The position numbers and the translations under genes were made by a program. The notes beneath the pieces are model-generated. The model did no database searches. It was not told the origin of the DNA and saw only the letters and a list, made by a program, of their open reading frames with translations. From Tubulanus polymorphus (lineage: Eukaryota; Animalia; Nemertea), in NCBI RefSeq assembly GCF_964204645.1, contig NC_134031.1:9114001-9178000 (forward strand): a DNA stretch of 64,000 nt, written 5' to 3'. This document shows, piece by piece, positions 981-57,859 of this stretch (the first letter of the stretch is position 1; every line of letters begins with the position of its first letter).

Positions 981-1004
981 CCCGAACGAACAGACCTCTC
1001 GCAA

Positions 1005-6497: not shown

Positions 6498-6529
6498 GGG
6501 TCTCTTGGAGAAGCTACTTGTTCTTCGTT

Positions 6530-9127: not shown

Positions 9128-9140
9128 GGCAAGGGGGGAG
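9128..9140 (+). promoter_or_regulatory. Polypurine tract
   Basis: GGCAAGGGGGGAG immediately 5' of the 3' LTR. Confidence 0.9.
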
Positions 9141-14100: not shown

Positions 14101-14335
14101 ATGAAAGACCATATTAAGAATTTCCTTTCTTGTGTGTGTAACAATTAGCTTTTGTCACGGAAAATGTCATGGTTTTTATTACCTTCATGGCGTAGTCATG
14201 AAGGTTATAAGATGTTAGTGAGTCGATGACATCATTTTCGTGTCACCACTTATAACTTGGTGGTGGGAGTTCAGACAAAGATTTGTCAAATGAATAAATA
14301 CTTGAATCTTATTAATGCAGAGTGTGAAATTTCGC

Positions 14336-32475: not shown

Positions 32476-32829
32476 ATGGAGACTAAACAAGTACACAGTG
32501 AGAACAACAAATCATTCTTAGATAGAATTAAAGATGCTACAAATGTCAAATCTGTAGATTATAAATTCAAAAAGTTAACAGAATTAACATTACATAAGAA
32601 ATATTTAATTACAAATATTGAATCAATTACTAATAGATATGGTAATAAATTAGTTATTCACTTAGAATACGAAGGATAAAAAGGAAATAAATATAAATTC
32701 AGAACATATTTACCAGATAGATTTCATAGATGATCTAGTGAAGATCTAGAAGAAGTGTGTTCTGGTGATTTATATTTCATATATAAAGGTAAGAATGAAA
32801 AAGGACGCCATGATATAGAGTTCGAATAA
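32476..32829 (+). pseudogene. Small conserved protein, paralogue of 57444-57770 (possible ssDNA-binding protein)
   Basis: Aligns by eye: FKKL..YG.K....L...F...LPD..S.E.L....IY.GKN..G.HD.E; two in-frame stops. Confidence 0.6.
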
Positions 32830-32970
32830 TATATAATAATGATATATTAGAAACTAAATTAGCAGAATTAAAGAATGAAAAAGAAATATATAAATGTGAT
32901 ACATGTAATCAATCATTCAGTAACAAAAGATATTATGAAAAACATTTAAAATCTAAAAATCATATTAGAA

Positions 32971-35868
32971 ATATAGCTGCCAAGCAGCGATGACAGGTTT
33001 TCTGCAAAGCCATTCAGAATGATGGGAATTGTAGTAAATTGAAATACCGATACATAGAATAAAATGCATTGACAGATTCGAACCTAATATGCTACCACTG
33101 TGTTAACGTCAAATATGATTCAGCTTTGAAACCGAACATACGCGGACGTACAATCAACAAATATTAATTTATTTGACCAGGCATTTATTTTGGCATTCAA
33201 ACATCAGGATACTGTATTATCACCATGCTTAAAAATGGAGCTGTCCTATTAAGAATTCATCTTAAGCACCTGCTGAGTCGATTGATTGAGTGAATTTACA
33301 GATAAGAACGTATTATGATTTAGAATAGATTTATGAAGTTAATGTTTTTATTGAAATATTTGAATAAATACATATATTGTAGTGTAGATTCAATCAATAA
33401 ATTATGATCTGGTCTGGGTTTCCGGCTGATGTTGATTTTGGCTTTTATGGATTACAAATTCTATAGTGATAAACAATTGATACCTGCAACATGTGTGTAA
33501 ATCAAACCTATTCCACTAGTTGCGTGTGTTTCCTAATAAACGGGAGAGTCACTCTTGATCTGAGTTATTAGAAAAATAATGTTCATTTAGTTATAGAAAT
33601 TCATTGCCTTTTTGGAAATTCTGTAATAATATTTGTTCTGTCATAATTTTTATTACTGTATGAACCAATGATATGCTTTGTAAATATGATGTAATAAAAT
33701 AAATTTGAATTTGAATTAAATTTGAACGTGAGAATCAAGCATAACTTGTGTTTTTTCAACTTGTCTTACTTGTCTTTTGTTAACAGTTCCAGAGTTTCAA
33801 TTACAATCAAATTCAAATTGGCTAAAAAGTACATAGGACTAAATGAAATGAACCGTTAGTTACTGCAAACCTATTCCAGTGTTATGTCGATCATGTTGAA
33901 TCACTTTCCTTGAGTTGAAAGAATCAGATCTTCTATGGTGCAACATCGGTCGAAGAGAGATATCTTCATTGGTGTTGACTGTCCTTGACCATCTAATTTC
34001 ATGCATTTGACATTGGAATCAGCATCATACCCATTTAAACTGCAAAATATTCATGCAACATGAAAACCTACAGTACATGTATACAGTAATCAAACTTTCA
34101 CCGATGTTGGATATTTGAATGAACGTTAGCCTTATTTCAGTATTCTTAAGCAGGAAATAATAAGCCCAATAAAAAGGCCCTATTCCCATTGGAACAATTG
34201 TATAATGCGTACAGCTGTATCGTACACTTATCAGTCAAGAATGGAGAAATCGGTATACCAAACCTACGAACAACAAAATGTACAGGCCTACAATGATTTC
34301 TGGTATACAAGCCGTGACCACATGAACGTTTTGGTTTGACTATTAATGTCAGCAGGTCAGAGAAAGCTTGCCCAAATTTAATCACATGGCTCAAATCAAT
34401 TAGCTTTTCTAGGTGTGAATACTTGACTGTATTGTTTTAACAATAGGCCTATCGAGTGAATTAGTACATAGACTGAATTAGACTTTAGGCTAGTCCTGAC
34501 CAAATCCTATCCATGTTATAATGGCACCAGTTAGGCCCTATAGTAACATCACTGGAGGGCCGACGAGAGGGGAAAAGTTGTGTTTGTAGTACATAGGCAT
34601 GGTAGGCTTGTCGTACTCACTTAATACTTAAAACACTGTTGTTACCTGTACGGTGACTTGCCGTATGTGAGTACGTTGGCGCTCAGACTTGCAATATTGG
34701 GATTCGAAACCAAACAAAAATAAATCCAGTAGTGGTCCAGTGATTTACCCCCTGTGCCACAGAACGTAACTGCAGGTTGGTGAAAATTTGATTTACAAAT
34801 AGCCTAGCCTCACCTAACCCAAACTCTATTCTTTCACGCACGCGCGTTTGCAGATTATAGGGTTTTAGGGAACTCGCGAACGGTTAACCTGTGGATATCA
34901 CCGTACAGTCACGTACGGGTAACAACTTCGTACTTAAAATGATATCGGCTACTAGGAACTCACGTACAGCGTTAGTAGGGAACTCACGTACGGTTAACCT
35001 GTGAAGATCACCGTACCGTCACGTACGGGTAACAACTTCATACTTAAAATGGTATTGGCTACTAGGAAATCACGTACGGCGTTAGTAGGGAACTCGCGTA
35101 CGGTTAACCTGTGGAGATCACCGTACAGTCACGTACGGGTAACAAGCTCGTACTTAAAATGGTATTGGCTACTAGGAACTCACGTACGGCGTTAGTAGGG
35201 AACTCACGTATGGTTAACCTGTGGAGATCACCGTACAGTCACGTATGGGTAACAACTACGTACTTAAAATGGTATTGGCTACTATATAATAGGCCTTTAG
35301 ACAAATAAATACCGGCAGGTAGGCTTTCTTAGCTTCCACACTTCACAACCGAACCAACTGACCAACCAGTATATTTAGTCCCAGTACGCACCAACCGGCA
35401 CAGGCCTAACACTGTTTGTCAACTGTGTGTACTGTAGTAGGCTATCGATAATCACCTGATACGTTTCTGTCGTTATTGACACTTTTGGTTACATGAACTG
35501 ATCAGCAATATACTTAAATGAAATAACCGGAATAACAAGAAATCAAAAATATTAAACAGGTAACAAACAAATGCCCGTAAACCTGTCAGACACGCGAACG
35601 CCGGACTCGTGAACTCTTGGACTCGGACCCGCTGAGCAATAAATTCATAAAATTGACTTTGAAATTGATTGTGGAGAAGAGAGGGAATTATTCGATAGCT
35701 CTTCCTCGAAAAGAAGAGAGAAATGTCGGAAAGAAAACACAACATGGCTACTAATTGAACGGAGCCAATTTCCGATGTTTACGGCTTGACAGTGCTCGAA
35801 AGGGAAAAAAAAAATAATAATCACGCGAATTTCAATAGGGTTTTCTGTGAAGAAACAGAAAACCCTAA
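32971..35868 (-). mobile_element. HINE family 3 copy 2
   Basis: Same terminal palindrome and hairpin as 27951-31826; PolB frame resumes after it. Confidence 0.7.
34866..35283. repeat. Tandem repeat, 110-bp unit, ~3.8 copies
   Basis: AACTC(G/A)CG anchors at 34871, 34981, 35091, 35201. Confidence 0.95.
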
Positions 35869-36093
35869 ATATTAATAATGATATGTAAGGTGAAGATTAT
35901 TTTGATAAAGATATTAATAAGAAACAAAGCATAATTAAAAGAATGAATACTAAATTAAACAATAAAAGACCATACATGGAAGATGTTAGAAATTATATTA
36001 ATTCATTAGATGATACTGAAGCATTTAAAAGTGATGTTGGACCAGCTGCTATTGAATTTAAATTTTATAAATGCAAAACATTAGAAGAAAAAA

Positions 36094-36600
36094 ATATAGC
36101 TGCAAAGCAGCGATAACGGGTTTTCTGGATGCATGTGATCGAAAGGAAAAATTAATTACCAGGTATTCGATGGAAAAAATAAAATGAGATGATTTGGATA
36201 TTATCGGAGCAATCCTCTTTTTGGTTGAATGGTCTAACCCCAGTATAGTCCCCCGTGATTTGGAAATTCTCGGAGCCCTCCTTTATTTACTTACTAAATG
36301 ACGTCACAAACGGTTATTTCGCCGGTGTTTGTTGTCTAACAATTCAATTCAATTCTTTATTTACAGTAACCTAATAAGTAATTTTAAGTTTCAAATAGGA
36401 TGGAAAGTACATTAAGACAATCTGTTGGTTCAGAGAGACCGTTATTACAGTATCAATTTATACATTTCGTTTCGAAGCTGTCAGTTGCCGAATCTGAATG
36501 AAGATGAATTTTATTTGACGAAATCGGCGGAAAATATATAATAATAATAATCAACAGAATTTCAAGAGGGTTTTCGACGAAAGTCAGAAAACCCTAAAAA
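36094..36600 (-). mobile_element. HINE family 3 copy 3 (short)
   Basis: Same ends; interior similar to 31440-31825. Confidence 0.75.
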
Positions 36601-37467
36601 AAACATTTAGAAAATACGAAAAATATTATAAAAATAATAACAGACGTAGAATATCCTAAAATTGGTATATCTGATAAAGTTAAATATATACAATCTGGAG
36701 ATAAACCAATATATAATATAAATTCTCATTCACACCATATTATTTCGAAACAAAATATAGATGATAAATTAGATAAATGCTATAATGAAGTGAAAAATGA
36801 AAAAGAAGAGAAATATTTTGAAGGATCGGGTTTAATATTTGATGAAATATTATTTATGACGTTACATGTGTACAATAAAAAATTAAAATAAATTAACTAA
36901 ATCAAAACCAATTGATGAAAATAATTTATCGTATTATAAAGAACCAGATATTGAAGCGTCGAGTGATATTAAACTACCATTTAAAACTAATGCTGTTATA
37001 AATGTACAAAATTTTGATGGTAAATGTTTTCTATGGACAATAATTAGTTGCTTACATCCAACAGAAGATATTACACATAGTTTTAGATTAACAAATTATA
37101 TACCATTTTGAAAATAATTTTAAGATAGATAATTATCCTGTTAAAATCAAAAGTATTCCAAAAATAGAAGAGATAATAATCTAAAAATAAATTATTTAAT
37201 TAAATCAAATTACCAAAAACAAAAGGTAATAATATCAAACATTATACATTAGAACCTTTGTATTTATCAAAAGATTATGATTCAAATGATGTTATAGATA
37301 TGTTATATGGATAAAACAAATTGATTTATTTTTTAAATCAGAAAATGATTATACTTTTGGATTATATATTATTTTGTTATTTACTATGGATTTTGGATTA
37401 TATATAAAATCTGATTATCCAGAACTAATTAAAAGTGAATATCATTATTATAGAAATGAAAATGCTA

Positions 37468-38331
37468 TTTTCATGGGCTTTCATGCTTACAAGCCCATAT
37501 TGCTATCACACGGATTGATAACTTGCTTGGGGAGTCTATAACTTTTGTTAGTAACCTTCTTGGGCTCTGAGGGCTCTGATATTTACACAAAATTTCACAA
37601 TAAAACATTTGCTTTCACGTTTTTAAAAAATTCTTCTAATTTTCTTTTACTTTCATAGGGTGCTTGCGTTTGTGGCCATTTGAAAAATCTCTGTATGAAC
37701 ATTTATATTTTTCAATTTTAATAACTAATAAAACTTAAAACCACTATCTGTAAAATAAATTCTGAATTGAATTGGAGACTGGTTCCCTGTCTTATCAAAG
37801 AACCAGGGGGCGGTAGTCTATGGTGGCAATAAACTTTATCCGATGATCGTAGTGGATTGTCATTTGAAGGAAATGCAACTTATTCTTGCTTAATGTCTTT
37901 ATTATTTTAAAAAGAAAAATCGTGGCTCCTATCTATTTTTGTGTTCGCTTCTCTTCACCTGAAGTCAATCAAGTTAGTCACGTTTTTTCTTTCAGCTGTA
38001 AATTTTTCTATGCATAATCATTTCAACACAATCCGATAAGTTATTTAGCAATTATCAACATGATGATAGATTCCGATAAGACACTACAATATTCAAATAA
38101 CAACTATCCAAAAGCTTGCACTAACTTGGTCCACGTCAATAAAACCATTCCGATTCCCAGTCAACATGTGTAACATTTCATGTAACGATGTAAGACAACA
38201 CCGATCTCTTAGCTCTTTATTAAGTAATCGGTTCAAAGTTCGATTAATTCTACTACAGAAATAAAAAACCACCAAGCAAGCTTTCAGTACGACCATGTCA
38301 GCAAGCCCATTTTTAGAATGTCTTTCTTGTT
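37468..38331 (+). mobile_element. HINE family 5 inserted in PolB A
   Basis: 5' ATGGGCTT..AAGCCCAT hairpin, 3' subTIR AAGCCCAT and CTTGTT end; PolB-like sequence on both sides. Confidence 0.6.
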
Positions 38332-40747
38332 GTGACCTTATTAATTGAATATGAAATAAAATTTAATGAATTATTAGATGAAAATAAAGAAATTATAATG
38401 ACAGAACAAGATAAAGAAGAATTTGATTTTGCAGATAAATGTTATTACTGTAATGAAGTATTCTATTCATCTGATAAAAAAGTAAGAGATCATGATCATT
38501 TGAATGGGAAATTTAGAGGTGCAGCACATGAGAATTGTAACTTACAAGCTAAGAAAATCTATTCCAGTTATATGTCATAATTTATCAGGTTATGATGCTC
38601 ATTTATTTATTAAACATCTATGTCATAAAATAGAAGAAATCAATAATGAAATAGAAAGATTAAATTCAAATAGACCAAAAGATGTTGCTAAAATACCAAC
38701 TTATAAATTTAAAATGTTACCTAAAAATCTGAAAATGATATATCTTTTCAATTCGGCTGTTTGAGATTTATAGATTCATATAGATTTTTAATTAGTTCAT
38801 TAGATAATTTATCGAAATCATTAGTTAATGGTGAATTGAACATCTTAAAAGAACATTATCAAAATGATGATGATTTTCAATTAATGAGATATAAAGGCGC
38901 GATTCCATATTCATTTTATAAATCGCATAATGATTTTAACATAACTGAATGATTAAAAGAACAATTCTATGATGAATTAAAAAATGAATATGTTAAAGAT
39001 GGAGTTCATAATAGAAAATTGAATATTTGGAATCATTTCAAAATAGAAAATCATGGAGAATTAGTAGATTTATATTTAAAATCAGATGTATTATTATTAA
39101 CTAATATATTTGAAAGGTTTAGAGATGTAAATCTGAAATATTTTGATATTGATCCATGTCATTGTTATTTATCACCAGGTTTAACTCGGGACTGTGGTTT
39201 AAAATGTAAAGATATAAAAATGGATTCATTAACAAATATAGATCGATTATTATTATTTGAAAAATCTATAAGCAGAGGAGTTTCAGGTGTATTAGGTGAT
39301 AGATATTTCAATGTAAATGATAATCCTGGATATAAGTTATTATGTATAGATGCAAATAATCTATATGGTCGGGCAATGATGGAACCACAACCTTATGGAA
39401 TATTTCAAATAACTGAAATTTTACAGCACGAAAATGTTGATAAATTTGATTGGAAGAAAAGAATTCTAGATATTGCAGATGATTCAGATACTGGTTACTT
39501 CTTCGTTGTAGATTTAAAATACCCTGAAAATAGAAAAATTTAAATCTAGAAATCCAGCATACTGTTCCGAACATAAAACTGTTACACATGAAGAATTATC
39601 AAATTATCAAAAAAGAATTAAACCTGAAAATCATATTCATACAGAAAAGTTAATGGTTACTCAAGAAGATAAGTATAATTATGTAGTACATTATAGAATT
39701 TTAGAATTCTATTTGAATGAAGGAATGATTCTTACAAAAGTACATAGATATATTTCATTTAGTCAATCTAAATGGTTAGAAAAATATATAGATTATAATA
39801 CCAAACAGAGAACTAAAGCTTAAACTGATTTTGAGAAAGATTTTTTCAAACTAATGAATAATCCATTCTATAGTAAGACTTGTGAAAATATTAGAAATAG
39901 AAATGATATTCAGTTAGTTAGTAATGGTCATTTAGTTAGTAATGGTAAAAGAATTAGACATTTACAAACATATCCTAAGTTCATAGGTAACAGAATATTT
40001 GATGAAAATTTAGCTGCAGTTAAAATGAGAACTTCTATGAAATTTAATAAACCAATTTATGTTGGAGCATCAGTTTTAGAGATAATTACAAAATTATTAA
40101 TGTATGAATTACGACCTCATTTTGGAGAAAAGCATATAGAAATCTTATATTTTGATACAGATTCTTACATATTAAAGATAAAAACTAATAATATAACAAA
40201 TGATTTTAAAACATTAAAACATCATTCTGACTTTTAATTTTAAAAATAATTATCCTAAAATTACCCTAAAAATCATGAATTTTTTAACGATGATAATAAA
40301 AAAGTTCCTGGGTAGATTAAGGATGGATTAGGTGGTGAAGAGGTGAAGAAATGATAGAGTTCATAGGATTTCGATCTAAAATGTATAGTTATAAAACTAA
40401 AACTCATGAATCTAAAAAATTGAAAGGTATTACAAAAAGCGTTGTTGAAAAAAACATTCATTTTAAAGATTATATCAATTGCATATTTAATGAAGAAGTT
40501 AGAAAACATAAGATGAAATGTTTAAGATCTTGAGTACCACGAAATGTTTATTGAAGAGATAGAAACGGTTAGTTTGAACCCTTTCGATGATAAGAGATAT
40601 ATTTTAGACGATGGAATCCACACAGTTGCATATGGTTGCAATTTGGATGAATGCTTGAAATTTAAAAGGGATGAAGAGAAAGAGAATGAGATTATGAATA
40701 GGATTCTAACATGTTAATCAATTTTAATAAAAAAATATGTATAATAA

Positions 40748-41230
40748 ATGGAGTCAGAACAATCACAAACTATTAATTTTACAAATAACACCGGTGTTGT
40801 TAATATTTATGATAAGAAATGTTCAAAATGTGAATTAAGTAAGCCATTTACTGACTATTATAAAGATCAATATTCTAAAGATGGTTTACGAAATAATTGT
40901 AAAAGTTGCAAAAAAGCAAATGTTAAACAATATTATATAAATAATACTGAAAAATGTAAAGAATTGAATAAACAATGGAGAGAAAATCATCCAGATTATA
41001 TGACAGAATATATGAGAGAATGGAGGGATAATAATCGTGATCATTTTAATGAATATTATAAAGAAAGGTGTCGAACAGATTTTAATTACAAATTGAAGAA
41101 ACGTTTAAGTTCTAGATTATCAAATTTATTCAGTAAAGATAATCACTCAGAAACACTAACAAATTTATTGGATTGTTCAGATAAGTTTTAAAAATCATGG
41201 ATTATATATCAATCTGTCTATCAATATCAT
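40748..41230 (+). pseudogene. Cys-rich putative HNH/endonuclease VII-type protein (N-terminal part)
   Basis: KKCSKC..K....YYKD....DGL.N.CKSC motif, charged helical repeats, RLSSRL..LLDCS segment as in large-DNA-virus endonucleases; truncated before any catalytic motif. Confidence 0.55.
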
Positions 41231-42835
41231 TCAAAACTACAAAATAAACGAAACAGAAATTAATACATGTATATTCACCTTCACAAAGTATCATTTATGT
41301 AATATAGAAAAAATATAATCAGGAACTTACTCGTTGCCTATATATGTATTACATGATGTCTTGATCAGCATGGTTAGGAGAGTGTCTACATAACGCCCAG
41401 ATTTATATATTGTAAGCCTTACATAGAGAGAAATATTGTTGACCAATGAAATGCCCAGGATTGCTGAATGCAGACTATGAATGAAACTATGAATGTCTGA
41501 ATAGCCTACTCATAAACGAGGTCAACACTGCCTATATCTAAATTTAATATGAATGATGAATATGATAAGAAATGAATTTGGAATTTGAAGAATCTAAGAC
41601 CTCTAGAAAAGATAAAAAATATGAGTAAATTTAACTAACTAGATTTACAATTATATTTGGAACAGTTGAATAAAGCAAGGAAATTTATTGATTGGTGGAA
41701 TAGTAACCCACAGAATGAACAACATGTTGAATCTTTATTAAGCAGTTAGCAAAACAGCAACGCCCGATCTACGTAAAACTGCCTGCATATTAAAACATCC
41801 GTCACACGCCACATTTCGTTGAATAGAAGTAATCAATTTGAATATTGATTGATCAAACAGATGTCACCATATAGAGTGAGTGAATAGCTAGCAGTTTTAT
41901 ATAAGCACGCATACACGTAGGACGCGCACAGGATTTGGATAACATATTTCTCTCCTACGTTATAATTCGGAGTTTACAGTTCTAAATGTAACTAGTGTTT
42001 TTGGTTTTTATTAAGAAGTTGGGAAAGGGGGTTACTTGATAAGAAACCTATAAATATTTAATATATTTTTTATATATAAGTGTATTAATTTATATTTAGC
42101 AACTATAACTTCGAGTGAATTCTGTTTTACGTTAGATAGATTTCTCTTTTAGGTAACGAGATGTTTATCACAAGAAAGTGAAGAAATTATGAATGTTACA
42201 TCTAAAGAGACTGTAGTTGTTTTGTTTTACTGTATAGACTTTCAATGTTTGATTGCTAGAATTTCAGTTATGCGTACATTCGTCGTTTGGTCGTTGTTAA
42301 TGGTAACACAGCAACAGCTGTTGTATTATGCTATATTGATTCAAACATTCCACGCATACCTTACCGCTCCTCGCATGAGCGGCTTGGAATGTTTGATCGA
42401 TACAATTTGTAGAATAAATCCATGTGTTTATTATATCAACTGACGTTTTTTGTTGAATTAATTTTCAGTTTGAGGATTTAATATCAATGATCCGAAATGA
42501 CATATCTGGACAATTATACATTGCTCCTAATAGATTAATAAAAGTAGTGAGATATTAAATCCTAATCTAATAGAAAGTATTAAAAATTACGTATCTTTAA
42601 CTAGCTATTGAATTCTATTATATTTTTGATATATTCTTATTCAATTCTAATTAACACTAGATTAAATAGATTTTGACCAGAATTGAATAAAAATTACATA
42701 ACTTCAAAAAGATATTCAAATATAATATACATTTCTAGTTAATACTAGAATTCTTTAACTTTAACTAAATAGTATTGACCCAGAGTTACTAGTATCATTT
42801 GAAGAATAATCATAATATTTTTTTTTCTAAAATAA

Positions 42836-43529
42836 ATGTCTAAGAAATCTAATAAGAATAATATTGATATTGAAAAAAACATTAGAATATTTAGGTATTA
42901 CTGATAATAATGATAATGTAGCAACTAAAAGTGTTAATAATATTGACATTGAATACTATTTATATTGTAAACGTCAACTTGAGTTACTTATTGCTAGCGG
43001 TTAATGCAAAGAATTCTTAAGTAAAATTATAACATCGCAAGAATAAGACTATGAACAAAGAAAAAGTAATAAAATATTTTAAAATATATGAAGAAGCTAG
43101 ATTAGCTAGAATAAATGATTCAATTTCGGATGGAATAGTAAAATGTAATTCTAAGTTATGCAACCGGGTAATACCAATTAATGATGAAAATTATATACAA
43201 ATTATTATATTAAATCATATACTGATTTAAAAAATGATTACTTAGTTATGACACAACTGCAAAAATGGGTTGGATATGCTTCATTTCAATTAGGCCGAAT
43301 AATGACATTAATTTCTGCTGGTGTAATAACATTTTCTAATATCAAACCTATAGTATATAAAGATAATAAATCAGATAATATCGAAACAGATATTAAATCA
43401 GAACAAAAATTAAGTAAAATAAATGAGTGATGATATTAATAAAAAGCCTAGATCTGAAAAACAAATTAAATGGGCATGGGAATTAGGTAAAAGAGCTAAG
43501 AAAAAGAAATTAACTGATATAAATGAATA
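42836..43529 (+). pseudogene. Two overlapping small ORFs homologous to 55520-56112 and 56060-56401
   Basis: Shared peptides YYLYCK.QLE.LIASG, ARIND.IS, DLKNDYLVMT.L.KW.GY.SFQLG, KKPRS.KQI.W..LG; cut by element B's TIR. Confidence 0.8.
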
Positions 43530-43581
43530 GTAATTGGGAAATGTGGGTTTCATACCAGAGGTTGACACATCACTCATCACC

Positions 43582-43810
43582 GCGAGGCACTAACGAGAAC
43601 GGTCGGCAGCGTTGTGCTATTACAGTAGTACAGTGATTGTGTACCAGCTGCGCTCGGATAGTCGGTCGATGCAGCGAGGCACTGACGAGAACGGTTGGAA
43701 GCGCATTTGCTATTACAGTAGTACAGTGATTGCGCAACCAGCCATGCTCGGATAGATAGATGCAGCGAGGCACTGATGAGAACGGTTGGTAGCGTGTTTG
43801 TTATATACAG
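43582..43810. repeat. ~92-bp tandem repeat (2.5 copies) inside left TIR
   Basis: GCGAGGCACT..GAGAACGG repeated at ~43582, 43674, 43765; flanked by direct repeat CACTCATCACC; absent from right TIR. Confidence 0.85.
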
Positions 43811-45080
43811 GGGGACAGTAACCGCGCCACACTCATCACCACAAGTAATTTTTTTTCTTATAAATGGGAGACAGTGAGTACCAGACAGAAAACAATGATG
43901 TTAATAAAAATCAATATTATTGTCCATATTGTAAAAAAATTCATCAATAAATCTAAAAAATCGCGTCATGAAAAAACAGCAAATCATACAAAAAATGTTA
44001 AAGATTTTGAGACACCAGAAAATTCCAATGAAAGAAAAGAACAATTAGAAAATATGAAAAAAAATAAATGTAATATTTGTAATGTATAGCAAAAGGAATT
44101 ATAAAAGACATCTCGAATCACACAAACACAAACATAATTTAAATAAAAATATTTTAGGAACAGAATATTTTGATGATAAACCTCAACAAGTAAAAAAAAC
44201 CAGTTTCAAAAACTTAATTTCAAATAAACCTTATATGGAAAATGTTAGAAATTATATTGATTCACTAGAAATAAAATATACAATTGAAATTTTAGAAACA
44301 TTACGTAGTAAAATTGGGCATGCAGCTATTATATTTAGATTTTTTAAAGGAGCAACAATAGAAGATTATAGTAAATTTATTGAAATCGTGGAAAAAATAC
44401 TAGATTTTGTAACAGATGTTGAATATCCAAAAATTAGTATTTCTAGAAAAGTTTTATCAAATCAGAAGTAAAAATGGATTATAATATTCAAACACACTCT
44501 GAAGAAATCATTTCAAAAACACGAATAAAAGGGAAGTTAGAAAAAATACTTAATGAATTTAAACGTCATATTGAGGAAAGATATTTTGAGGGTTCTGGTT
44601 TAACATTGAAAAAAATTATATTTTTAGATTTAAATATTTATAATACAAAGAGAAATAAAACATCAAAAAGTAATACAATGTTTTAAAATGATTCAAACTT
44701 TACAACAGAAAAGGATATTAAAGCATCATCTTATATTAAGTTACCATTTACAACAAAAGCAGTAATAAATGATCGAAATGAAGATAATAAATATTTTCTA
44801 TTGTCAATTATTAGTTGTTTACACCCAACAGAAGATATTACGCATAGTTTTAGAATAACAGATTACCGGAAATATGAAACATTATATAAAATTGATCTAT
44901 ATCCAGTAACTATAAAGATGAATACTAAAATAGAAAAAGTTAATAATTTAAAAATTAATGTTTTCGAATTAATGCAATTACCAGAGACAAAAGGTGAAAA
45001 TATTAAAGATTATACATTAGAAGCTTTATATTTAACAGAATATTATGATGATGAAAATGTTATAGATTTGTTATATTACA

Positions 45081-46595
45081 AATAAATTGCCCATGGGCAA
45101 AGTGTGGTTTACCTTGAAAGCTAGAGGTTGGTTGGAGTAAGGGCATTGCTTGAAAAATCTGTTTAATTCGTGACTTCAAAGTTCTACAAGTTTATATTGT
45201 ATTTTATCTTTTTTAAGATATATTTTGTACTCAAATAAGACCACAGATATACATTTGTTTACGGTCCACGTCCAAAATTCCGTAGGGTACAGGTAGGTGC
45301 GGCAGGGAAACTATTTAAAAAAAAAATATTTTTCACAATATGAAAAAAAAATTCAAACAACGCATCCCAAAATAATTGTCTGTTTGCCGTAACACCGACT
45401 TAACTTCTCAGGAGGAGTCGGTAGGTAGATTTTTTTTTTTTGCTAAATTTTTGGGCAAAAGAAACAAATTTATCACCTTTCTTACATGGAAACGATGTCG
45501 CAAATCTACGTTGTGCACGGAAAATTTGTCTAATAGCGTAGATTTCAAGAATTATTCTAAAATTATAACTTCTTCCAGAGCGTCATCTCCGTGTCAAAAA
45601 TGGAACAGTACATTGAATATATGCGCGCTTTTACCAGCTTCAATTTAGTCACTATTAGAATGAATGGCAGCTTATTGGAACACTGCCAGTTTCCTGGAAA
45701 ACTTAAACTAGGCCACATGTCAAGGCATGTTTTCACAGATGCACATTTGACTTCAAACATACGTAGCTCATACATCGGCAGTGGGTCGGTCGGTCGGCCG
45801 TTTTTATCAAAAATGAAATTTATTTCAATGAATCCCAGAAAAAAGTTTTCACTCGGTACCATTGAAATCGGGTCGGTGGGGTTACGGCTACAGACCATTA
45901 TTTTGGGAAGGCCTAAAAACCCATACGGTATGATGTTACATATCAGAGGTTAGCTGAATATTGAGTCTTGGAAACCTCTTCCAATGTATGGCCGCGGAAG
46001 CTTTTACCGGTACAGAATAAATCGGCTATTAGATCGTTTTAAATCCTGGAATTTACTACTACAATATTCAGACCTCGGCAGACCTCATAGTTTGCTGCTT
46101 AGTATTTTCAGGTCACAAGAAATTATTACAAATTCTATCAAACCGATCTTCTGCTACGATTATTCAGCCTATTTTCATGTCAAACGTGCACGCGTTACAG
46201 CATCACCGTTAGTGAAATTCGCACGTATACGGTACCTAGTCCAATGAAACGTACGCCATTCTATGGCTTTCCCATAATTAATTTAGTAGCAGAATTCCCC
46301 GTATATCCCAAAAACAGCCAATCCCATTCGCTCGTAGAGACGACGCCCCCAATCGATGTCATTGCAATTTTATACGCGAGAGCTAAGAATTTCCCGCCAA
46401 AAAAAGTTTTTCGTAGAATTTTAACTCAGTTGACCATGTCAGCGACGGAGGTTCGCCATGTCTTCAATCGCATCGATTCTACGTCGTATTAGCCGAGAAC
46501 CAATGAAACAAATGCTCACATAAAAATACGTTCAGCGATTTTACATGGATTGGCTCAATGCCAACATCATATCGCTGACAAAGGTAAACCAAAAA
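45081..46595 (-). mobile_element. HINE family 2 copy 2
   Basis: Reverse complement of 14336-16126 (minus a ~200-bp internal segment); interrupts PolB B. Confidence 0.8.
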
Positions 46596-48883
46596 GATGA
46601 AAATGAACATTATATGTGGTTAAAACAAATTGATTTATTCTTTAGAACAGAAAGTGATCATCATCGTAAAATTTATCTATGTAGAAAATGTTTATCTAAA
46701 TTTATGACTGAGAATGCATTATTAAAACATAAAGAATTATGTGATAATAAAGATTTTTGCAAATTAATAATGCTAACAGAAAAAGATTATAAATTGAAAT
46801 TTACTAATCGTAAATTTAAGAATATAGTGCCATTTGTAATTTATGGGGATTTTGAATCGTTGAATATAAGAATTAACTGATCAAGATAGAAAAGAAATAT
46901 ATAACAAAAAGCAATTTTCAAAATCAATGGAACTAAATGAAGATATAATTCAAGACCCACCAATTATAAATACAATTAAAAAAGTTCATGAAAGAGCTGC
47001 TGCTTATGGAATTTATATAAAATCAAATTATCCTGAATTATATGAAAGTCAATATATTTCTTTTAGAGGTGAAGATGTAGTTAATGATTTTTGTAACAAA
47101 ATAATTGAATTAGAAAGTGATTTTATTAAACAAACATAAAAGAATAGTTATGACAAAAGAAGATGAAATTGATTTTAATCAAGCAACTCATTGTTGTGAT
47201 TGTGAAAAACGTTTTTATTCATTTGATTAAAAAGTTAGAGATCATGATCATTTAAATTCAAAATATCGTGGAGCTGCTCATGAAGATTGTAATTTACGAG
47301 CTAAAAAAGTAAATTTCGTACCAATATTATTTCATAATTTATCAGGCTATGATACTCATCTATTTATAAAACAATTATCAGGAAAATTAGGCGCAATTAA
47401 TCAAGAAATAGAAGAATATAATGCTATGAATGATTTAAATGTAAAAAAAATATGATTTTAAACTATTAGCTAAAACATCTTAAAATTACATTTCATTTCA
47501 ATTTGGTTGCATTAGATTTTTAGATTCTTATAGATTTTTAGCAAGTTCATTAGATAATTTAGCAAAAAGTTTAGTTGATAAAGATTTTGTAATAACTCGA
47601 CATTATTACCCAAATGAACAAGATTTTAAATTATTGAGATATAAAGGCGCAATTCCTTATTCATTTTATAAAACACATGATGATTTTAATGTTACAGAAT
47701 TATTAAAAGAACAATTTTATGATCAATTAAAAGAGGAGTATGTGAAAGATGAAGTTTCTAATAGAACATTAAATATTTGGAATCATTTTAAGATAGAAAA
47801 TCATGGTGAATTAGTAGATTTATACTTAAAATCAGATGTTATGATATAGGCTGACATATTTGAAAAATTTAGAGAAGTTAATTTAAATCATTTTAATGTT
47901 GATCCTTGTTATTGCTACTCTAGTCCTGGTTTAACCTGGCAATGTGGTTTAAAATATACAAATGTAGAATTGGATTTATTAAAAGAACCAGACATGGTTT
48001 TATTATTTGAAAAATCAATTAGAGGTGGAATTAGCGGTGTTATGGGAGATTTTAAAGCAAATGATGAATATAGATTATTGTATATTGATGTTAATAATCT
48101 ATATGGTTGGGCAATGATGCAACCTCAACCATACAAAAATTTTATATTAACAGAAGTTGAAAATGATGATAAAACTAATTGGCAAAGCGCAATTATGAGT
48201 TTAGAAGAAGAAGCACCAATTGGTTATTTCTTTATAGTTGATTTAGAATATCCCGATTACATAAAGTTTAAAACAAGAAATTTACCTTATTGCCCTGGAC
48301 ATTTAGCTGTAGATGATAGTTATTTAAGTGAATACCAGAAAAAAAATAAAACCGAAAGATCATGTTTCTTCAGAAAAATTGATATTAACACAAAATAATA
48401 AATATAATTATATTGTCCATTATAGAATGTTAAAATTTTATCTAAAGCAAGGAATGAAATTAAAGAAAGTAAATAGATATATTGAATTAAATCAATCGAA
48501 GTGGTTAGAAAAATATATAGATTTCAATACTCAACAGAGAACAATATCTAAAACAGATTTTGAAAAAGATTTTTTTTAAATTTATGAATAATAGTTTTTA
48601 TGGAAAAACATGTGAAAATATTAGAAATAGAAATGATATTGAATTAGTAAATAATTCTGAACGATTAAGACATTTACAATCAAGTCCTAGACATTTAGGA
48701 AATACAAGATTTTGAGATTATTTAACAGCAGTAAAATTAAAAAGAACATCAATGAAATTTAATAAACCTGTATTTATTTGTTCAACTGTTTTAGAAGTAT
48801 CAAAATTATTAATGTATGATTTTTATTATAATGTTTTACAACCACATTTTGGGGAAAAGCATATTGAAATATTATATTTTGAT

Positions 48884-49922
48884 TCTGTTACAGCTGACAC
48901 CCCAATATTATTAAAATATAATGATAAAATATTGATAAGAAGAATTTCAGAAATAATTCCAAAGCAAAATGAACGTTATGTTTCATATGGTGAAAAAGAA
49001 TTAATACAAATAAATGAATTAATGGATGTTTGGGCAAGAAATGAATGGAAAGAATTAAAGAATATTAGGCATAAAACAAATAAGAAAATCTATAGAGTTA
49101 GAACTAGGATTTGTTGATGTTACAGAAGATCATAGTTTAATTAGAAAAAAATGGTGATGAAATAGAACCAACTGATGCAAAAATTGGTGATGAATTATTA
49201 CATAAAAGATTTTACCCAAGAACGAATCATATGTCATTTGATGAAATAATTGATAATATTTATAACATAGAACCTGAAACATTAGAAGAAAAAGAATATT
49301 TTATTAAAGGATTTTTATGGGTGTGTATAATTATGTTAGTCGCACTCAATATTGTTGGTATTTATGCAATCAAGACTTGAAATTATTAGAAAGAATAAAG
49401 AAATACTGTGAAGAAGTTTATTCGCAAAAAGTTTTTAAAATCATAGATGTTATGAAATCATCACAATGTTATAGAATACATGTAAATAATCCTAAAGATT
49501 TTGCTATAAAATTTAATGATGAATTCTATATTCATGCAATAGTGAAAAGTAATACTTCAACAAAAGAAAAGATAGTGCCAGATTATGTATTAAATGCAAA
49601 ATATAATTTAAGAAAATGGTTCTTTGGATTCTATGCTGCAGATGGCACTAAAAAATTTATAAAGGATAAAAAGATAACCTTTGCACAAAAAGGAAAAGTT
49701 GTTATATCAGGATTAAATCTATTATGCAATTCATTAGGTTTTAATATGAATATCGGATTGATTAAATCTAAACTAAATTGTTTTAATCTAAGGCATACAG
49801 AAAAAGAAATAACTGAGGAAGTTAAAGATTTATTTGAAACATCCAACCCAATTGACTATGTTTATGATTTATCAACTGAAGATGGCACATTTAACTGTGG
49901 ATTTCCATTAATTTGCCTCAAT
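48884..49922 (+). mobile_element. Intein with LAGLIDADG homing endonuclease in PolB motif C (frameshifted)
   Basis: Block A SVTADTPILL, block B VDVTEDHSL, block E FFGFYAADG, block H QKGK..SGL..LCNSLGF, block F YVYDLSTEDGTF, terminal Asn followed by extein Thr; precisely absent from PolB A (YFDTDS). Confidence 0.93.
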
Positions 49923-50367
49923 ACTGACGCCTACATACTAAAAATCAAAACAAATGACATAACAAAAGACTTTAAGAAACATTAAAACATCATTTTGACT
50001 TTAGCAATTATCCAAAAGATCATGAATTATTTAGTAATGATGATAAAGAAATTCCTGATAAGTTTAAAGATGAATTAGGGGGTGATGAAATGATTGAATT
50101 TGTTGGGGTAAGAAGTAAAATGTATAGTTATAGAACAAAAGATCACGAAGCTAAAAAGTTAAAAGGAATAACAGAGCATGTGGTTGATAAACATATAGAA
50201 TTTCAAGATTATATAAAGTGTTTATATAACTCAATTGTAATGAAACATAAAATGAATTGTTTATGATCAGAAGATCACGAGATGTACATTAATGAATTTG
50301 AAAAAAACTAGTTCGATGATAAAAGATATATTTTGGGTGATGGAATAAAAACATTACCTTATGGTTA

Positions 50368-52789
50368 TTAAAAAATAAAATCAATATCATCATACTCGAA
50401 ATCACTACTGGTTTCTTCATTTTTTGACGCCTTATAAAACGTTACCATTATGAAACCTAAACAATGTTAACCATTCAGCGTCATTTTACAAACGACAACC
50501 GTAAATCGATGTGCAAAACGTCACAGGTTTATGTGTACACATACAAGCTATTTGGCAAAATATTATTGATAAAGACGTAGAATGGCTCCCTGTGATTATA
50601 TAATGACCTCTATTTGAACGTCGAAATGTTATATTGCATTGAATATCATGATAAGAGGTATTGTAATAGTAAAGGATGTATGATTATATCAGGAGCGGCA
50701 GGCATAAATAGAAATGATAAGTAAATCGGATTATTCGGTTAAATGGCGGATGTATACACGATTTGGAAGTCTGATATAAAAGTCAGACCCTGATATGGGA
50801 ATGCTAGTGGAATAACAAAGCTATCTACGATCTGAGTAGGGCCGGCGTGGATTTCATCGGCGGCTACAAGCGGTCTATATAAAAACGTGTAAACAAATAA
50901 TTTCAATATTCAAATGTTTTAGAAAATATGTTCGATATTAGGGGTATGCAGGTTTCATGAGATTAGCAATCTATAATAGCATAGCTGTCATATACGGCTC
51001 CGCGTCAACTGATGGCATGTGTATAAGGTGAAAATTCAATTCAATACTTTATTGATCCTTATTACATTCAAATTCCGGGATGAAATTCCCAAATTCAATA
51101 AAGTTACAAATTTTAGAATAAGAAAATACAAAATACAAGACACATGGGTAATTCATACAGAATAACATGAATAAGTTATTTAAATGACGATGTCTACTTC
51201 AACCCAGACTCAAGTCTAGGATATCGAGTGACAGCCAAACCGGGACCGGGCCGGCTGGCTACACGATATGCTCGAAGTCATGATGAAGCAGACATCAGAA
51301 GAGCTCTTTCTTCAACCATGGAGGCAATGAAGTTGCAGACCAGCTTAGAGCAAAAGTGAATCGAAGTCGGTCACAAGTTGACATTTTTTTTTTAATTAGA
51401 CCAGTCGAAGACTGTATCATCTACCCAATCGCCAAATCTCACAATTCCCCAAATTTCTTAAAACTTCGATTTCAAATTTGCAATTCCACATTAGCTTATC
51501 CCAGAAATTCTACATTTTTTCGCAGGCGTCAAATAATTTATTAAAGTTAATTTTCTTGTATTTAATTGTTTAGGTTCTTCCGTTTCATTTTTCTCTTTTA
51601 AATAAAATTCTATATTATTCCACATTTCATCTCGCTCTCTTTGTTTCTTTGTGTTTGTTAATTCATCAAATGGAATTATAATATCGAGGTTTAAAAAAAT
51701 TACAATCTTATTTAAAAAGAATTCATAATTAATTGAATCTGTTATTTTATTATCCACATAATATCTTAATAATTTTTGTGAATGTTTCTTTTATACTTTC
51801 CATATCTTCTTCTGTTAATTTAGGTTTTTCATGATAATCGTTAAATAATAGATATAAATACATTATCTTTTTTTGTGTGTTACATGTTGACGGAATAATT
51901 GTTTTTATTATATCTTTCTTAGTTATTTCACCATATTTATTTTCTATCATTTTCATTTTTTCAAACCATTGATTCTGGTGTGTGATCTTCCATAGAAAAT
52001 ATTTTGAAAATCTCATTTAGATATTTTAATTTTGGTTCTATAAGAATATCTCTAGTTTTTTCATCACCCCATAAATTTTTTTGCCATCCACATTACAAAA
52101 TATCACAGAATCTTCTTGTCTTAAGTACTCATAAATACATTGTGGGATTTTTTTTCTATCATATCTTGGTAATAGATCTTCATTAAGTTCTTGGTATTTA
52201 CTTACGTTTTCTTAATGTTTTATTGTTCTATTATGTAGATTTAAATTACTTGTTTTAATAATCAATTTACAATATTTACAATAATATGTTTTTCTTACTA
52301 ATCCATTATATTGTTTTTCAAACTTTTCAAGTGTTTCTTTATTATCTGGTAACGTTTTCTCGTATTTCATTTTTTTCCAATATATTATTTTTTCTTTCAT
52401 TGAATTCTGTTTCAAATTATTAAAAATTTTATCTATACGTGCTTTACGAAATTTATGATTCTCCCAATCTTCTATATTCGAAAAGGCTCAAAGAAATGAT
52501 CTTTTATATTATTCTTATCATAGAATAAGAAAGGTCTTTTCCAAATAATTTCAAGTTCACTTTTAACAAAATTACTATTATTTTCGTTTCTATCAACATT
52601 AACCGTTGAGTCATTAATTTTACACTTTTCTGAATGTTTTTTAACATAATTTCTTGAGAATAATTTATTACAATTCGGGCAGTTTAGTTTAGAAGGTTTG
52701 TAATTTTTATCATGTTTTTTCATATGTCGAGCCATATTACTTTTTCTTTGAAGTTCACCACAAATTTCACATTCTTTCTTCCCATCCAT
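50368..52789 (-). pseudogene. Multi zinc-finger protein of element B, fragmented and interrupted by insertion
   Basis: CEICGELQRKSNMARHMKKH, CPNCNKLF..H..KC, CKYCK..H...KH; acidic C-terminal piece converges on PolB stop. Confidence 0.55.
50421..51559 (+). mobile_element. ~1.1-kb non-autonomous element (HINE-like family 6) copy 1
   Basis: Direct repeat of 53343-54419; subTIR TTGACGCCT / AGGCGTCAA; ends TTCTTGT. Confidence 0.7.
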
Positions 52790-52858: not shown

Positions 52859-54600
52859 ATGGTTGAATTAAAAGAATATAGAATATTTGTTGATTCAAGA
52901 AGACTTACAAATTATAAATCACATAATTTACTAGTACAATTAGATAGGGAATTTAAAAATTGTGTAGATTTATAATCAGTAAATATTAGTTTATGTAACT
53001 CATTTTACAATATATCGAATAAAACAATTGAACATAGAGCCTTTTTAATTTTTAATAAAAATAAAAATGAATGGTCCTATATATATTTAAAACCAGGGTT
53101 ATATAATTTAGATACATTATCACAAGAAATTAATAGAAAAGTCTGGCACAAATTAGGTAGTAATTCCGGGTTTAATATTAGATTTTTTTAAAGTGATAGT
53201 TCTGATAAAATAAAGATACGGTTGTCTAATAGTGAAAAACATAAATTTATGGTAAAAAAACCTATAGCTAAACTGTTAGGAATTCCTCCAGATAGATCTT
53301 TTACAAATATTGATGCTACACCAAACTTAATACCTTACACGCATAAAACGTTACCATTATGAAACCTAAACAATGTTAACCATTCAGCGTCATTTTATAA
53401 ACGACAGCCGTAAATCGATGTGCAAAACGTCAGAGGTCTATGTGTACACAAACAAGCTATCTGGAAAAATAGTATTGACATAGATGTAGAATGGCTTCCT
53501 GTGATTATATAATGCCTATATTTGAACGTCGAAATGTTATATTGCATTGAATATCATTAGAAGACGTATTGTAATAGTAAAGGATGTACGATTATATCAG
53601 AAGCGGCAGGCATAAATAGAAATGATAAGTAAATCGGATTATTCGGTTAAATGGCGGATGTATACACGATTTGGAGTCTGATATAAAAGTCAGACCCTGA
53701 CGGGGGCATGCCGGTGGAATGACGAAGCTATCTATGATGTGTGTAGGGCCGGCGTGAATTTCATCAGCGGCTACAAGCGGTCAATATGAAAATGTGTAAA
53801 CATATAATTTCAATATTCAAACGTTTTAGAAAATATGTTTGATATTAGGAGTATGCAGGTTTCGTGAGATGTGTATTAGGTGACGATTCAATTCAATTCT
53901 TTATTGATCCTTATTACATTGAAATTCCGGGATAAAATTCCCAAATTCAATAAATACAAATTTTAAAATAGATTAATACAACATACATGACACACGGGTT
54001 ATCCATACAGAACAACATAAGCATGTTATTTTAAATGACAATGTCTACTTCAACCCACCCAGATTCAAGACTCTAGGATATCGAGTGACAGCCAAACCCG
54101 GGGACCGGGCCGGCTGGCTAGGCCACACGATATGCTCGAAGTCATGATGAAGCAGACATCAGAAGAGCTCTTTCTTCAACCATGGAGGCAATGGAGGAAA
54201 TGAAGTTGCAGACCAGCTTAGAGGCATAAGTAAATGAAGTCGGTCGCAAGTTCGCGATCAATTATTGAGAATTTTCAATAAAAAAATTTAAACCACAACT
54301 AGAGTCGAAGACCTGTATCGTCTACCCAATCGCCAAATCTCATCATTCCCCAAATTTCTTAAAACTTCGATATCAAATTTGCAGGCGTCAAATAATTTTC
54401 TAAAATTAATTTTCTTGTTATATTTATTGCAATTTAATTGATCCTACAAAGACATTCGAAGCAACTAAAGATTTAACTTGTAATTCTAGTATATTAAATA
54501 TTTTACCATTGAAGAATGTTAAAGAATTTGGAATTCAAATAAATTATAATTCAACGCCAGATAAATTCAATGAATGGATATTATCAAGTAAAATTAAAAA
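52859..54600 (+). pseudogene. Minor capsid protein (penton)-like gene, interrupted
   Basis: IFVDSR..QLDREFKN, NSFYNI, LKPGLYN...L..EIN and, after the insert, YIYCNLID..ILNILP: motif series typical of Polinton pentons; adjacent to packaging ATPase. Confidence 0.65.
53343..54419 (+). mobile_element. ~1.1-kb non-autonomous element (family 6) copy 2
   Basis: Direct repeat of 50434-51559. Confidence 0.7.
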
Positions 54601-54607: not shown

Positions 54608-55216
54608 ATGAATAAGGAATTATTTATATTTGAGCCTTATAATATGTTAATTTCTGGCGTAACAAATTGTGGAAAAACTTATTTTATATTAAATTTATTA
54701 GAAACTGTTTATAAAAACTATATTGATAATATAGTATTATTTTGTCCAACATATGGATTTAATCAAACTTATGATAGAAATATTACTAGAAATAATAAAT
54801 TTATTATATTAGATCCTAAAACAGTAAAAGAAAATTTAGATAATTGTATTAAAATAGCAATAGATATTTATAAAGGATCAAATACATTATTCATTATAGA
54901 TGATTGCGCAAATTTACAAGATTCAAAAGTGAGAGAAAGTGAGTTATGTTATCTGGCTTTCTCTGGGAGACATTTGGGGATAACAACATGGGTTTTAAAT
55001 CAAAAATATAATTCAATTGTTAAAGACTTTAGAGAAAACATTAGATTTCTAGTTTTATTCTACAATAAAGACAGAAAATCGATGAAAATTGCACTTGAGA
55101 AAAATGATATTATTCCACATGATTTACATAATGAATATATGGATAAATTGAAAAATATTAAAAGATCAAAATTACTATTTAGATTACAACACCCATTTAA
55201 ATATGAATTTATTTAA
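54608..55216 (+). CDS. A32/FtsK-like DNA packaging ATPase
   Basis: Open 202-aa ORF; Walker A GVTNCGKT, Walker B FIIDD, SGRH arginine motif and LNQKY. Confidence 0.92.
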   Translation: MNKELFIFEPYNMLISGVTNCGKTYFILNLLETVYKNYIDNIVLFCPTYGFNQTYDRNITRNNKFIILDPKTVKENLDNCIKIAIDIYKGSNTLFIIDDCANLQDSKVRESELCYLAFSGRHLGITTWVLNQKYNSIVKDFRENIRFLVLFYNKDRKSMKIALEKNDIIPHDLHNEYMDKLKNIKRSKLLFRLQHPFKYEFI

Positions 55217-57443: not shown

Positions 57444-57770
57444 TTAATCAACAATTTCTAAATCATGATGACCGTCTTTATTTTTTCCATGATAGATTAT
57501 TTTAAATCCTTCTAAATCTTTTAATTCCTCTGTACTCAATGAAACCCATTTATCGGGTAAAAATACTTTAAATTCTCGCGATGTACTAACATTACAGTAA
57601 CTTAAATTCGCTGATACTTTCTCTCCATATTTAGTTTTTATCTTTTCTAATTTCAATATTTTATGTTCAATTTCTTTTGTAACATCAATTAACTTTTTTA
57701 TTTCAAATTGTTTTTTTGCTGGTTTTATTCTGTTATTTATTGTTGCTAAGAATGCTTTCCTATCTCCCAT
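57444..57770 (-). CDS. 108-aa conserved protein (possible OB-fold ssDNA-binding protein)
   Basis: Intact ORF starting at inner edge of right TIR; homologue in element A. Confidence 0.7.
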   Translation of the reverse strand: MGDRKAFLATINNRIKPAKKQFEIKKLIDVTKEIEHKILKLEKIKTKYGEKVSANLSYCNVSTSREFKVFLPDKWVSLSTEELKDLEGFKIIYHGKNKDGHHDLEIVD

Positions 57771-57859
57771 TTATTAGGAAAACAAATTACTTGTGGTGAT
57801 GAGTGGTGTTTAGTACTCTAGTACTCTGGTATGAAACCCACATCTTCCAATTACTGTCC

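Follow-up and report, generated by a model that had tools for sequence, protein, structure and literature searches.

An inactivated pol-c-type intein in the DNA polymerase of a decayed Polinton, and its putatively mobile relatives

Introduction

How could an intein with the features of the pol-c allele come to lie in the protein-primed DNA polymerase of a Polinton (Maverick) element, within a genome that probably belongs to an animal, and has it been moving among such elements? This question is raised by a window of 64,000 nucleotides (the whole stretch of DNA that was analysed), in which the conserved motif C of a polymerase pseudogene is split by an insert of about one kilobase. The pol-c allele is known for Mimivirus and archaea from passages of Ogata 2005 (PMC549080), and the class 1 intein features and splicing chemistry referred to below follow parts of PMC7765530. 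Eukaryotic intein surveys, in the accessible portion of PMC5784728, cover fungi, algae, protists and large viruses; since iridoviruses (which include insect viruses) are among the carriers surveyed, inteins in animal-infecting viruses are not new. Passages of Gallot-Lavallee 2023 (PMC10710043) describe intein-bearing, virus-like DNA polymerases that lie on nuclear scaffolds in Klebsormidium, Tetrabaena and a labyrinthulid. For Polintons, the accessible part of Jeong 2023 (PMC10748475) reports HNH and VSR endonuclease domains in the polymerases, and a passage of Krupovic 2024 (PMC11071308), citing that work, ascribes such inserts to "intein invasions", as a suggestion.

Based on profile searches, a structural model of a close relative, phylogenetic trees and raw reads, we consider it highly probable that the window holds a broken copy of a pol-c homing-endonuclease intein in motif C of a Polinton polymerase, of a kind likely to have persisted by cutting and converting intein-free copies.

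Results

The insert is 1,039 nt long and splits motif C as YFD|TDAY, its Ser codon directly following YFD and its Asn codon being followed by TDAY (Table 1). An earlier reading of the same DNA, made from the letters alone (the sequence-only reading), had placed the insert at exactly these coordinates, which were confirmed by alignment with a second polymerase copy in the same window (copy A), and every motif that it had quoted (SVTADTP, DVTEDH, FFGFYAADG, block F and Thr+1) was found again. Copy A, which lies 9 kb upstream and whose unbroken YFDTDSY at 40,156/40,157 provides an internal control, aligns in self-comparison to 47,123-48,883 and 49,921-50,366, at 71% and 69% nucleotide identity, with a gap between.

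Table 1. Positions of the intein, its parts and the surrounding Polinton features in the window
Feature	Position	Strand	Basis
Polymerase copy A (protein-primed; pseudogene with the empty site YFD-TDSY)	35,868-40,636	+	tblastn, self-comparison
Element B, left terminal inverted repeat beginning AGTAAT, with tandem units inside	43,529-43,874	+	
Polymerase copy B, host of the intein (protein-primed, family B; pseudogene)	43,943-50,365	+	PF03175 on pieces, tblastn
Pol-c-type intein with LAGLIDADG homing endonuclease, broken copy	48,884-49,922	+	sequence comparison, HMM
N-terminal Hint piece, block A with Ser1	48,884-49,105	+	TIGR01445; 63% identity to P0175 over 78 aa
SVTADTP	48,884	+	Ser1, block A
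Block B Thr-x-x-His (T 49,122; H 49,131)	49,107-49,142	+	alignment with relatives
DVTEDH	49,116-49,133	+	block B
End of N-terminal Hint, linker and start of first LAGLIDADG helix (block C, truncated)	49,144-49,317	+	
Endonuclease body: block D Lys, block E, block F Asp (49,866), Leu-Asn	49,320-49,922	+	
FFGFYAADG	49,620-49,646	+	block E
YVYDLSTEDGTFNCG...LN	49,857-49,922	+	block F and terminal Leu-Asn
Thr+1 of C-extein (Thr of polymerase motif C D-T-D)	49,923-49,925	+	
A32-type packaging ATPase, element B	54,608-55,216	+	Pfam Pox_A32, E 7.6e-14
Element B, right terminal inverted repeat with final bases ATTACT	57,760-57,855	-	

The copy is frameshifted, as the sequence-only reading had stated: the frame changes three times (near 49,106, 49,143 and 49,318), and the Asp-Gly of block C, which holds a catalytic Asp, is missing, with block E kept; in the unbroken relatives the insert stays in frame. 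Because of the three frameshifts and the lost catalytic Asp, this copy is dead, incapable of either splicing or homing. Its endonuclease body is nevertheless a single open frame of 201 codons, and the four intein pieces hold no stop codon, against five in the five extein pieces checked.

In the comparison with Hint and LAGLIDADG profiles that the sequence-only reading had proposed, the N-terminal piece of the window intein passes the cut-off of the NCBIfam profile intein_Nterm (TIGR01445; 25.1 bits, cut-off 24.5), two other carriers, P0169 and P0005, lie at or above it, and the intein of an unbroken relative matches the window at E 3.7e-90 (tblastn); the similarity of the insert to inteins is far above chance level. 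Pfam searches with the window's own pieces gave a sub-threshold LAGLIDADG_3 match (E 0.078) and no Hint match, and no relevant match was returned when two of the pieces were searched against PDB sequences. Among the other carriers, Pfam Intein_splicing lies above its cut-off for P0169, and LAGLIDADG_3 does so in four of the five scanned. The nearest unbroken relative among the matches listed is P0175 (214 of 342 columns identical, 63%), which stands in for the window copy in the structural work. Modelled from its single sequence, this closest unbroken relative reached a pLDDT of only 40, and an AlphaFold model based on an alignment with 40 relatives (pLDDT 93.5) was used instead. In Foldseek, the top solved match of that model is 7qsu (E 3e-17, TM 0.65), with further matches to 7qss, 7qst, 2cw7, 1dq3 and PI-SceI, all of these being inteins that bear an endonuclease, and then to I-DmoI; giant-virus polymerase fragments match it too. 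A Hint fold is thus predicted, supported by the TIGR01445 score of the window piece and by the P0175 model.

The residues point in the same direction. S1, T84, H87, D151, D261, D336 and N354 are kept in all 11 other carriers, T84 and H87 being almost invariant across 41 relatives, and both LAGLIDADG catalytic Asp residues (blocks C and E) are present in 11 of 11; the window itself carries Ser1, the block B Thr and His, the block F Asp, the terminal Asn and Thr+1. The penultimate residue, on the other hand, varies: Leu in the window, Ser in the closest relative and Lys in Mimivirus, with H in eight, K in two and S in one of the 11 other carriers and, among 205 single inteins of 280-420 aa from the wider family, K in 117, H in 80, S in 7 and F in one. 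Leu occurs in none of those 205 and was seen in the window copy. These counts (K 117 against H 80) reject His as the fixed penultimate residue of the family, and the suggestion of the sequence-only reading that the Leu lies one change from a canonical His is not supported; since the position varies, the Leu need not represent decay from His. Penultimate His, a usual feature of class 1 inteins, appears to be non-defining for the pol-c allele. Taken together, the profile scores, the fold of the relative, the residues and the tree described below bear out the earlier identification of an intein with a LAGLIDADG domain at the pol-c site, which we regard as a class 1 intein with splicing predicted.

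The host gene had been read as a Polinton-type protein-primed polymerase, and it is supported as such by PF03175 matches, tblastn and the A32 ATPase of the same element. PF03175 reaches E 1.2e-5 on the window pieces, just under the cut-off, and lies above it in four of the five carriers scanned. Copy B, which is 82% identical to the intein-free polymerase of L003, is a pseudogene: it contains stop codons and frameshifts, and a 1.5-kb repeat has inserted into it between 45,082 and 46,605. Terminal inverted repeats of Polintons/Mavericks start with AG or AGT, and their integration produces a 6-bp target-site duplication. The inverted repeats of the element that holds copy B (element B) match in two blocks (32 nt at 94% and 46 nt at 91%), and a 6-bp target duplication is absent, the six bases on either side being different. 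The left end lies inside the remnant of a small gene of a neighbouring element (element A), and the region is therefore rearranged. A gene for a retrovirus-like integrase and one for the double jelly-roll major capsid protein were not found in the window (one query each); an rve integrase adjoins the polymerase of the close relative L006, and a capsid-like gene is present in L012. Element B is best read as a decayed, rearranged Polinton, whose copy in the window looks deleted or decayed.

Reads of three independent runs, from one organism and two studies (1,934 million letters), were mapped to 46,500-50,600. The best run shares only 0.23 of the window's words, and the sequenced organism may be a related species. 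Raw reads occur in every bin, with a depth of about 125-220 over the intein and about 270-670 over the adjoining exteins; since only 1,034 of the 21,227 reads are at least 99% alike, they would come from a set of copies that have diverged from one another, a sizeable share of them with the intein, depth being no measure here of copy number. The 5' junction is spanned by three contigs, which come from two runs and reach at least 39 letters to either side; among the 16 pieces shown (from a total of 3,031), the 3' junction is spanned by none.

The C-terminal piece of the window intein has one unbroken relative among 1,179 candidates (P0001, 50%, E 1.8e-42), whose intein was used for wider searches, giving 1,730 cluster representatives at E <=0.001 (best 150 listed) and, in a second database, 1,125 proteins (best 120 listed). 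Protein-primed carriers with the same site make up 10 of the best 120 of 1,125 and one of the best 150 of 1,730; the other full-length matches listed show no Polinton polymerase similarity, and their readable sites are nearly all YGD|TDS. Trees were built with 11 distinct unbroken carriers (cluster members included) plus the window, and these 12 inteins of protein-primed polymerases are monophyletic with 100/100 support in the careful tree (40 rows), and with an SH-aLRT of 100 among 115 inteins of RNA-primed polymerases (kept from 185 after thinning). The intein is rare: of the 80 top-ranking metagenome loci with Polinton-type polymerases, 68 have a readable empty site, 12 lack a readable one, and not one gave an intein match. 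Scans of viral contigs with single Polinton polymerases returned no relative, and an alignment scan returned one giant-virus locus only.

On the extein tree (59 rows, with 36 of the 81 loci left out as short or broken), the carriers fall within one subclade and are interleaved with empty alleles, with six changes of state; L003, an empty allele, is the sister of copy B from the window. Intein and extein identities are correlated (Mantel rho 0.57, p 0.003, 10 carriers), and because the two track each other the association of intein and polymerase is old. The comparison of intein and extein trees, which the sequence-only reading had suggested, thus gives a single intein clade at 100/100 together with correlated identities. 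A recent one-off jump into this genome is rejected by the extein tree and by this correlation; the intein appears to be an old and widespread lineage with a presence/absence polymorphism, which the sequence-only reading had missed.

One carrier departs from this co-descent. The intein of P0208 is 42-46% identical to those of four other carriers (46% to P0175), whereas the polymerase cores of P0208 and P0175 barely align (23% over 226 aa, E 0.002). Because the inteins are this similar while the cores align only in scraps, P0208 would need a horizontal move between distant types of Polinton polymerase; we take its VSR-like motif to mark the polymerase as Jeong's pPolB2 type. The AU test (p 0.074) gives no firm position for P0208 within the other carriers. 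Another intein-carrying Polinton-type polymerase, P0166 (MBV2113503.1), is deposited at NCBI under the MAG of a bacterial symbiont of a clam, on a 2.5-kb contig, and is likely host DNA in a bacterial bin.

In two polymerase families, alleles with and without the intein occur at 94-99.7% extein identity. In the family of P0005 (with intein) and P0008 (empty), of which 15 of 121 members are listed, these two have 740 of 742 extein residues in common and identical residues at the site, and the empty P0008 allele could arise by precise loss. The 15 listed of the 136 members of the P0169 cluster, on contigs of 57 kb to 1.0 Mb, comprise seven intein-plus alleles, six empty ones and two that end short of the site. 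The empty members are 94-98% identical to P0169 overall; round the site, 8-10 of 24 residues differ, compared with 13-56 of 881-1,167 elsewhere, and the six other intein-plus members show 0 of 24 differences, a pattern and not a test, since the window of +/-12 residues was picked after the sequences had been viewed, the cluster members are related and the Fisher p values are descriptive. The empty alleles represent three site variants, which could be homing-resistant. As an observation on the site itself, the three variants (P0290 and P0292 as against P0293, P0294, P0296 and P0297) include two that read D-C-D and not D-T-D. Presence and absence by themselves cannot separate homing from precise loss; the divergence centred on the site may reflect either donor flanks brought in by co-conversion or a situation in which only resistant sites have stayed empty, and either would imply homing, of which we see signs here.

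The origin of the clade was examined on a tree rooted on 22 archaeal pol-c inteins, where two branches of SH-aLRT 97 place it within the viral inteins, next to the inteins of a ChoanoV1-like group and of two phage-type polymerases; an arrangement with all 29 viral inteins as one sister clade is not rejected (AU p 0.585, 43 rows) and scores slightly better. Because archaea and viruses both have this allele in RNA-primed polymerases, the protein-primed host would be the derived state, and parsimony favours a jump from an RNA-primed family B polymerase into a protein-primed one. A large DNA virus is the likeliest donor, since 40 of the 80 best viral loci are named as giant-virus MAG contigs. The AU value and the close kin in phage-type polymerases speak against taking a giant-virus donor as proven. 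Of the jump from a large DNA virus polymerase that the sequence-only reading had proposed, the RNA-primed donor therefore stands, on parsimony, and the giant-virus donor is unproven. The two phage-type polymerases, P0031 and P0033 (PHROG 262, E 1.9e-163 and 1.8e-77), carry the same pol-c intein, near the Polinton clade in the tree.

The genome around the element holds several retroelements. A Ty3/gypsy element with gag and pol occupies 1-10,104, with LTRs at 6-967 and 9,133-10,104 that are 98% identical and a long env-like region matching Baculo_F (E 2.7e-12), and from this LTR identity and this match it is taken as a recent env-bearing insertion. LINE remnants lie at 20,161-23,772 (-), with a long reverse-transcriptase frame into which the 3' end of a second LINE is inserted. 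In the three Atlas clusters that best match the window's LINEs, Arthropoda, Platyhelminthes and Chordata are the most frequent phyla (6-10 members of each cluster have a known phylum). Env-bearing gypsy elements and such LINEs typically mark animal genomes, and the host is, judging by these neighbours, likely an animal. That the intein is carried in an animal germline, as the sequence-only reading had it, agrees with this retroelement context, from which an animal host is inferred.

Discussion

In the mechanism that we propose, an unbroken precursor would splice by the class 1 route known from established intein chemistry, with an acyl shift at Ser1 aided by the block B Thr and His, then transfer to Thr+1 and cyclisation of the terminal Asn. 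Exact splicing alone would rebuild the catalytic D-T-D, so that the polymerase would depend on splicing; the site would be kept because Thr+1 is itself the Thr of D-T-D and only exact splicing gives a working enzyme. Empty sites would then be targets for the LAGLIDADG domain of the freed intein, and repair of the break on an intein-plus template would insert a copy of the intein, allowing spread among the many Polinton copies of one genome (many templates per nucleus) or among co-infecting elements. As to history, the intein may have passed once, early on, from an RNA-primed viral polymerase to a single subclade of Polinton polymerases. It would then have descended together with these for a long time, being lost and regained repeatedly, and would have jumped at least once more, later, between Polinton polymerases of distant types.

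An explanation that accepts the intein and dispenses with present homing would have it fixed early in one Polinton subclade and inherited vertically, the empty alleles arising by precise loss or recombination. The agreement of intein and extein trees among the main carriers fits this, as do the dead endonuclease of the window copy and the shared site residues of P0005 and P0008, which precise loss would lead one to expect. It accounts poorly for the catalytic Asp pair, kept in 11 of 11 other carriers despite a between-group identity of 44-60%, which calls for selection for cutting, for the differences that cluster at the site in the P0169 family, and for P0208 with its horizontal move; we consider purely vertical descent improbable. 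Still less credible is an insert that only cleaves (in the manner of Hedgehog or bacterial intein-like domains) and so disables the polymerase. The penultimate Leu of the window, Ser of the closest relative and Lys of two carriers, in place of His, would suit such a domain, but Ser1, Asn and Thr+1 are all kept, His is found in 8 of 11 other carriers and Lys is the commonest residue of the wider family (117 of 205), and the insert occurs in many full-length open polymerases, in which cleavage within motif C would destroy the enzyme. We hold a cleavage-only insert to be very improbable.

Two further alternatives concern the setting. Intein and Polinton could both be real and the host not an animal (a protist, an alga, a fungus or a symbiont contig), in which case the intein would be kin to those of intein-bearing viral polymerases on algal nuclear scaffolds. 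No host gene was identified within the window, and such cases in algae and a labyrinthulid are described in the accessible part of Gallot-Lavallee 2023 (PMC10710043); against this stand the env-bearing Ty3/gypsy element and the LINEs of animal-rich Atlas clusters, and a host outside the animals seems to us unlikely, with a small chance remaining. The sequence-only reading had named a misassembled contaminant as what would undo it; here this would be a piece of giant-virus polymerase joined into a Polinton pseudogene. AT-rich repeats do assemble badly, and the 3' junction is unbridged in the 16 pieces shown of 3,031; yet both junctions are exactly in frame at a conserved site, the three contigs bridge the 5' junction, read depth is unbroken over the insert, and the nearest kin are the inteins of other Polinton polymerases (63%), Mimivirus and ChoanoV1 reaching only 38-39%. 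The bridging contigs, the unbroken depth and the closer Polinton kin reject an assembly chimera, which is largely refuted and has a negligible probability. A broken homing-endonuclease intein of a Polinton lineage is thus the reading that we retain. Its wider form, in which the clade came from large DNA viruses in the distant past, still splices and homes, transfers between Polinton groups that are far apart, passes through a cycle of invasion and resistance among endogenous copies in animal germlines and represents the first canonical mobile inteins of animal nuclear DNA, we regard as evenly poised between right and wrong.

Compared with the pol-c inteins of Mimivirus and other giant viruses, the window intein is alike in its D|TD site, Ser...Asn|Thr ends, two LAGLIDADG motifs (the first truncated in the window copy) and length of about 340-360 aa, and is 39% identical to the Mimivirus PolB intein (125 of 317 columns). 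It differs in its host, here a protein-primed polymerase (PF03175) that is carried by an integrating element and for which sequence comparison with the RNA-primed viral enzymes gives no useful match, and in the residues before the site, which are YFD, YSD, YMD, ASD and YLD in Polinton carriers and YGD in viruses (YGD|TD in 77 of the 80 viral loci fetched). Archaeal pol-c inteins (Thermococci, Methanocaldococcus, DPANN; L093-L132) have the same site and terminal residues; they differ in being about 385-400 aa long or mini-inteins, with 23-35% identity in the best segments and a long branch. The cases in the accessible part of PMC10710043 also place an intein inside an endogenous viral polymerase of a eukaryotic nuclear genome, their hosts being, unlike here, algae and a protist, and the words animal, metazoa, Polinton and Maverick are absent from the main text of that paper. 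Endonuclease inserts in Polinton polymerases are common to the window and to the cases in the accessible parts of Jeong 2023 and Krupovic 2024; those inserts are HNH or VSR domains, without a Hint domain or splice junction described in these parts, whereas the window insert is a whole Hint and LAGLIDADG intein that splits a catalytic motif. With animal Mavericks and adintoviruses the window and its relatives have in common the protein-primed polymerase, the A32 ATPase and the inverted ends starting with AGT, and in the relatives the integrase and capsid.

The words intein, Hint and LAGLIDADG are absent from the text and supplement of Jeong 2023, and the word intein from Starrett 2021 (PMC8502044), Barreat and Katzourakis 2021 (PMC8097293) and the coral polintovirus paper PMC11131425. 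Word searches of PMC12220804, PMC5718144, PMC13768754, bioRxiv 10.64898/2026.06.19.733378 and the supplement of PMC8502044 likewise brought up no Hint-type Polinton intein. In the open literature searched, no Hint-type intein in a Polinton polymerase was thus found, and subscription journals, Repbase, InBase or bioRxiv supplements may contain one. The sequence-only reading had likewise known of no description of the feature in animal Mavericks, and our search found only the suggestion about other inserts; we think it fairly probable that a pol-c intein clade in Polinton polymerases is reported here for the first time.

If the proposed reading is true, animal nuclear DNA contains a canonical mobile intein, and endogenous Mavericks reveal a route by which it entered. 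Homing would also cross between RNA-primed and protein-primed polymerases that have little in common besides D-T-D, a kind of transfer that a passage of Ogata 2005 (PMC549080) deems implausible even between Mimivirus and archaea, and the ancestors of Polintons and large DNA viruses would once have been in one cell. Where many intein-plus and empty copies share a genome, and the empty ones fall into several site variants, homing, co-conversion and resistance could be measured in a natural system. The carrier filed as a bacterial protein calls for caution in annotation.

Other features of the window

Remnants of the second Polinton, element A, with its intein-free polymerase, extend over 32,479-43,528 in a gene order like that of L002, L006 and L007. 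A repeat of about 1.5 kb (45,072-46,646) interrupts the 5' part of polymerase B and has an inverted copy at 14,286-16,135 (83-88% identity); read depth is very high at its edge. Another repeat, of about 1 kb, occurs twice within element B, at 50,434-51,482 and 53,343-54,383 (83-92% identity). Between these two copies, at 52,880-53,340, a broken frame follows a C2H2-type gene; its longest piece is without a Pfam match, and we take it to resemble a Polinton minor capsid gene. The polymerase in the window (47,135-47,380) and those of P0005, P0167 and P0169 also have a domain of the endonuclease VII (His-Me finger) type (PF02945), which precedes their polymerase core and constitutes a second nuclease-type insert.
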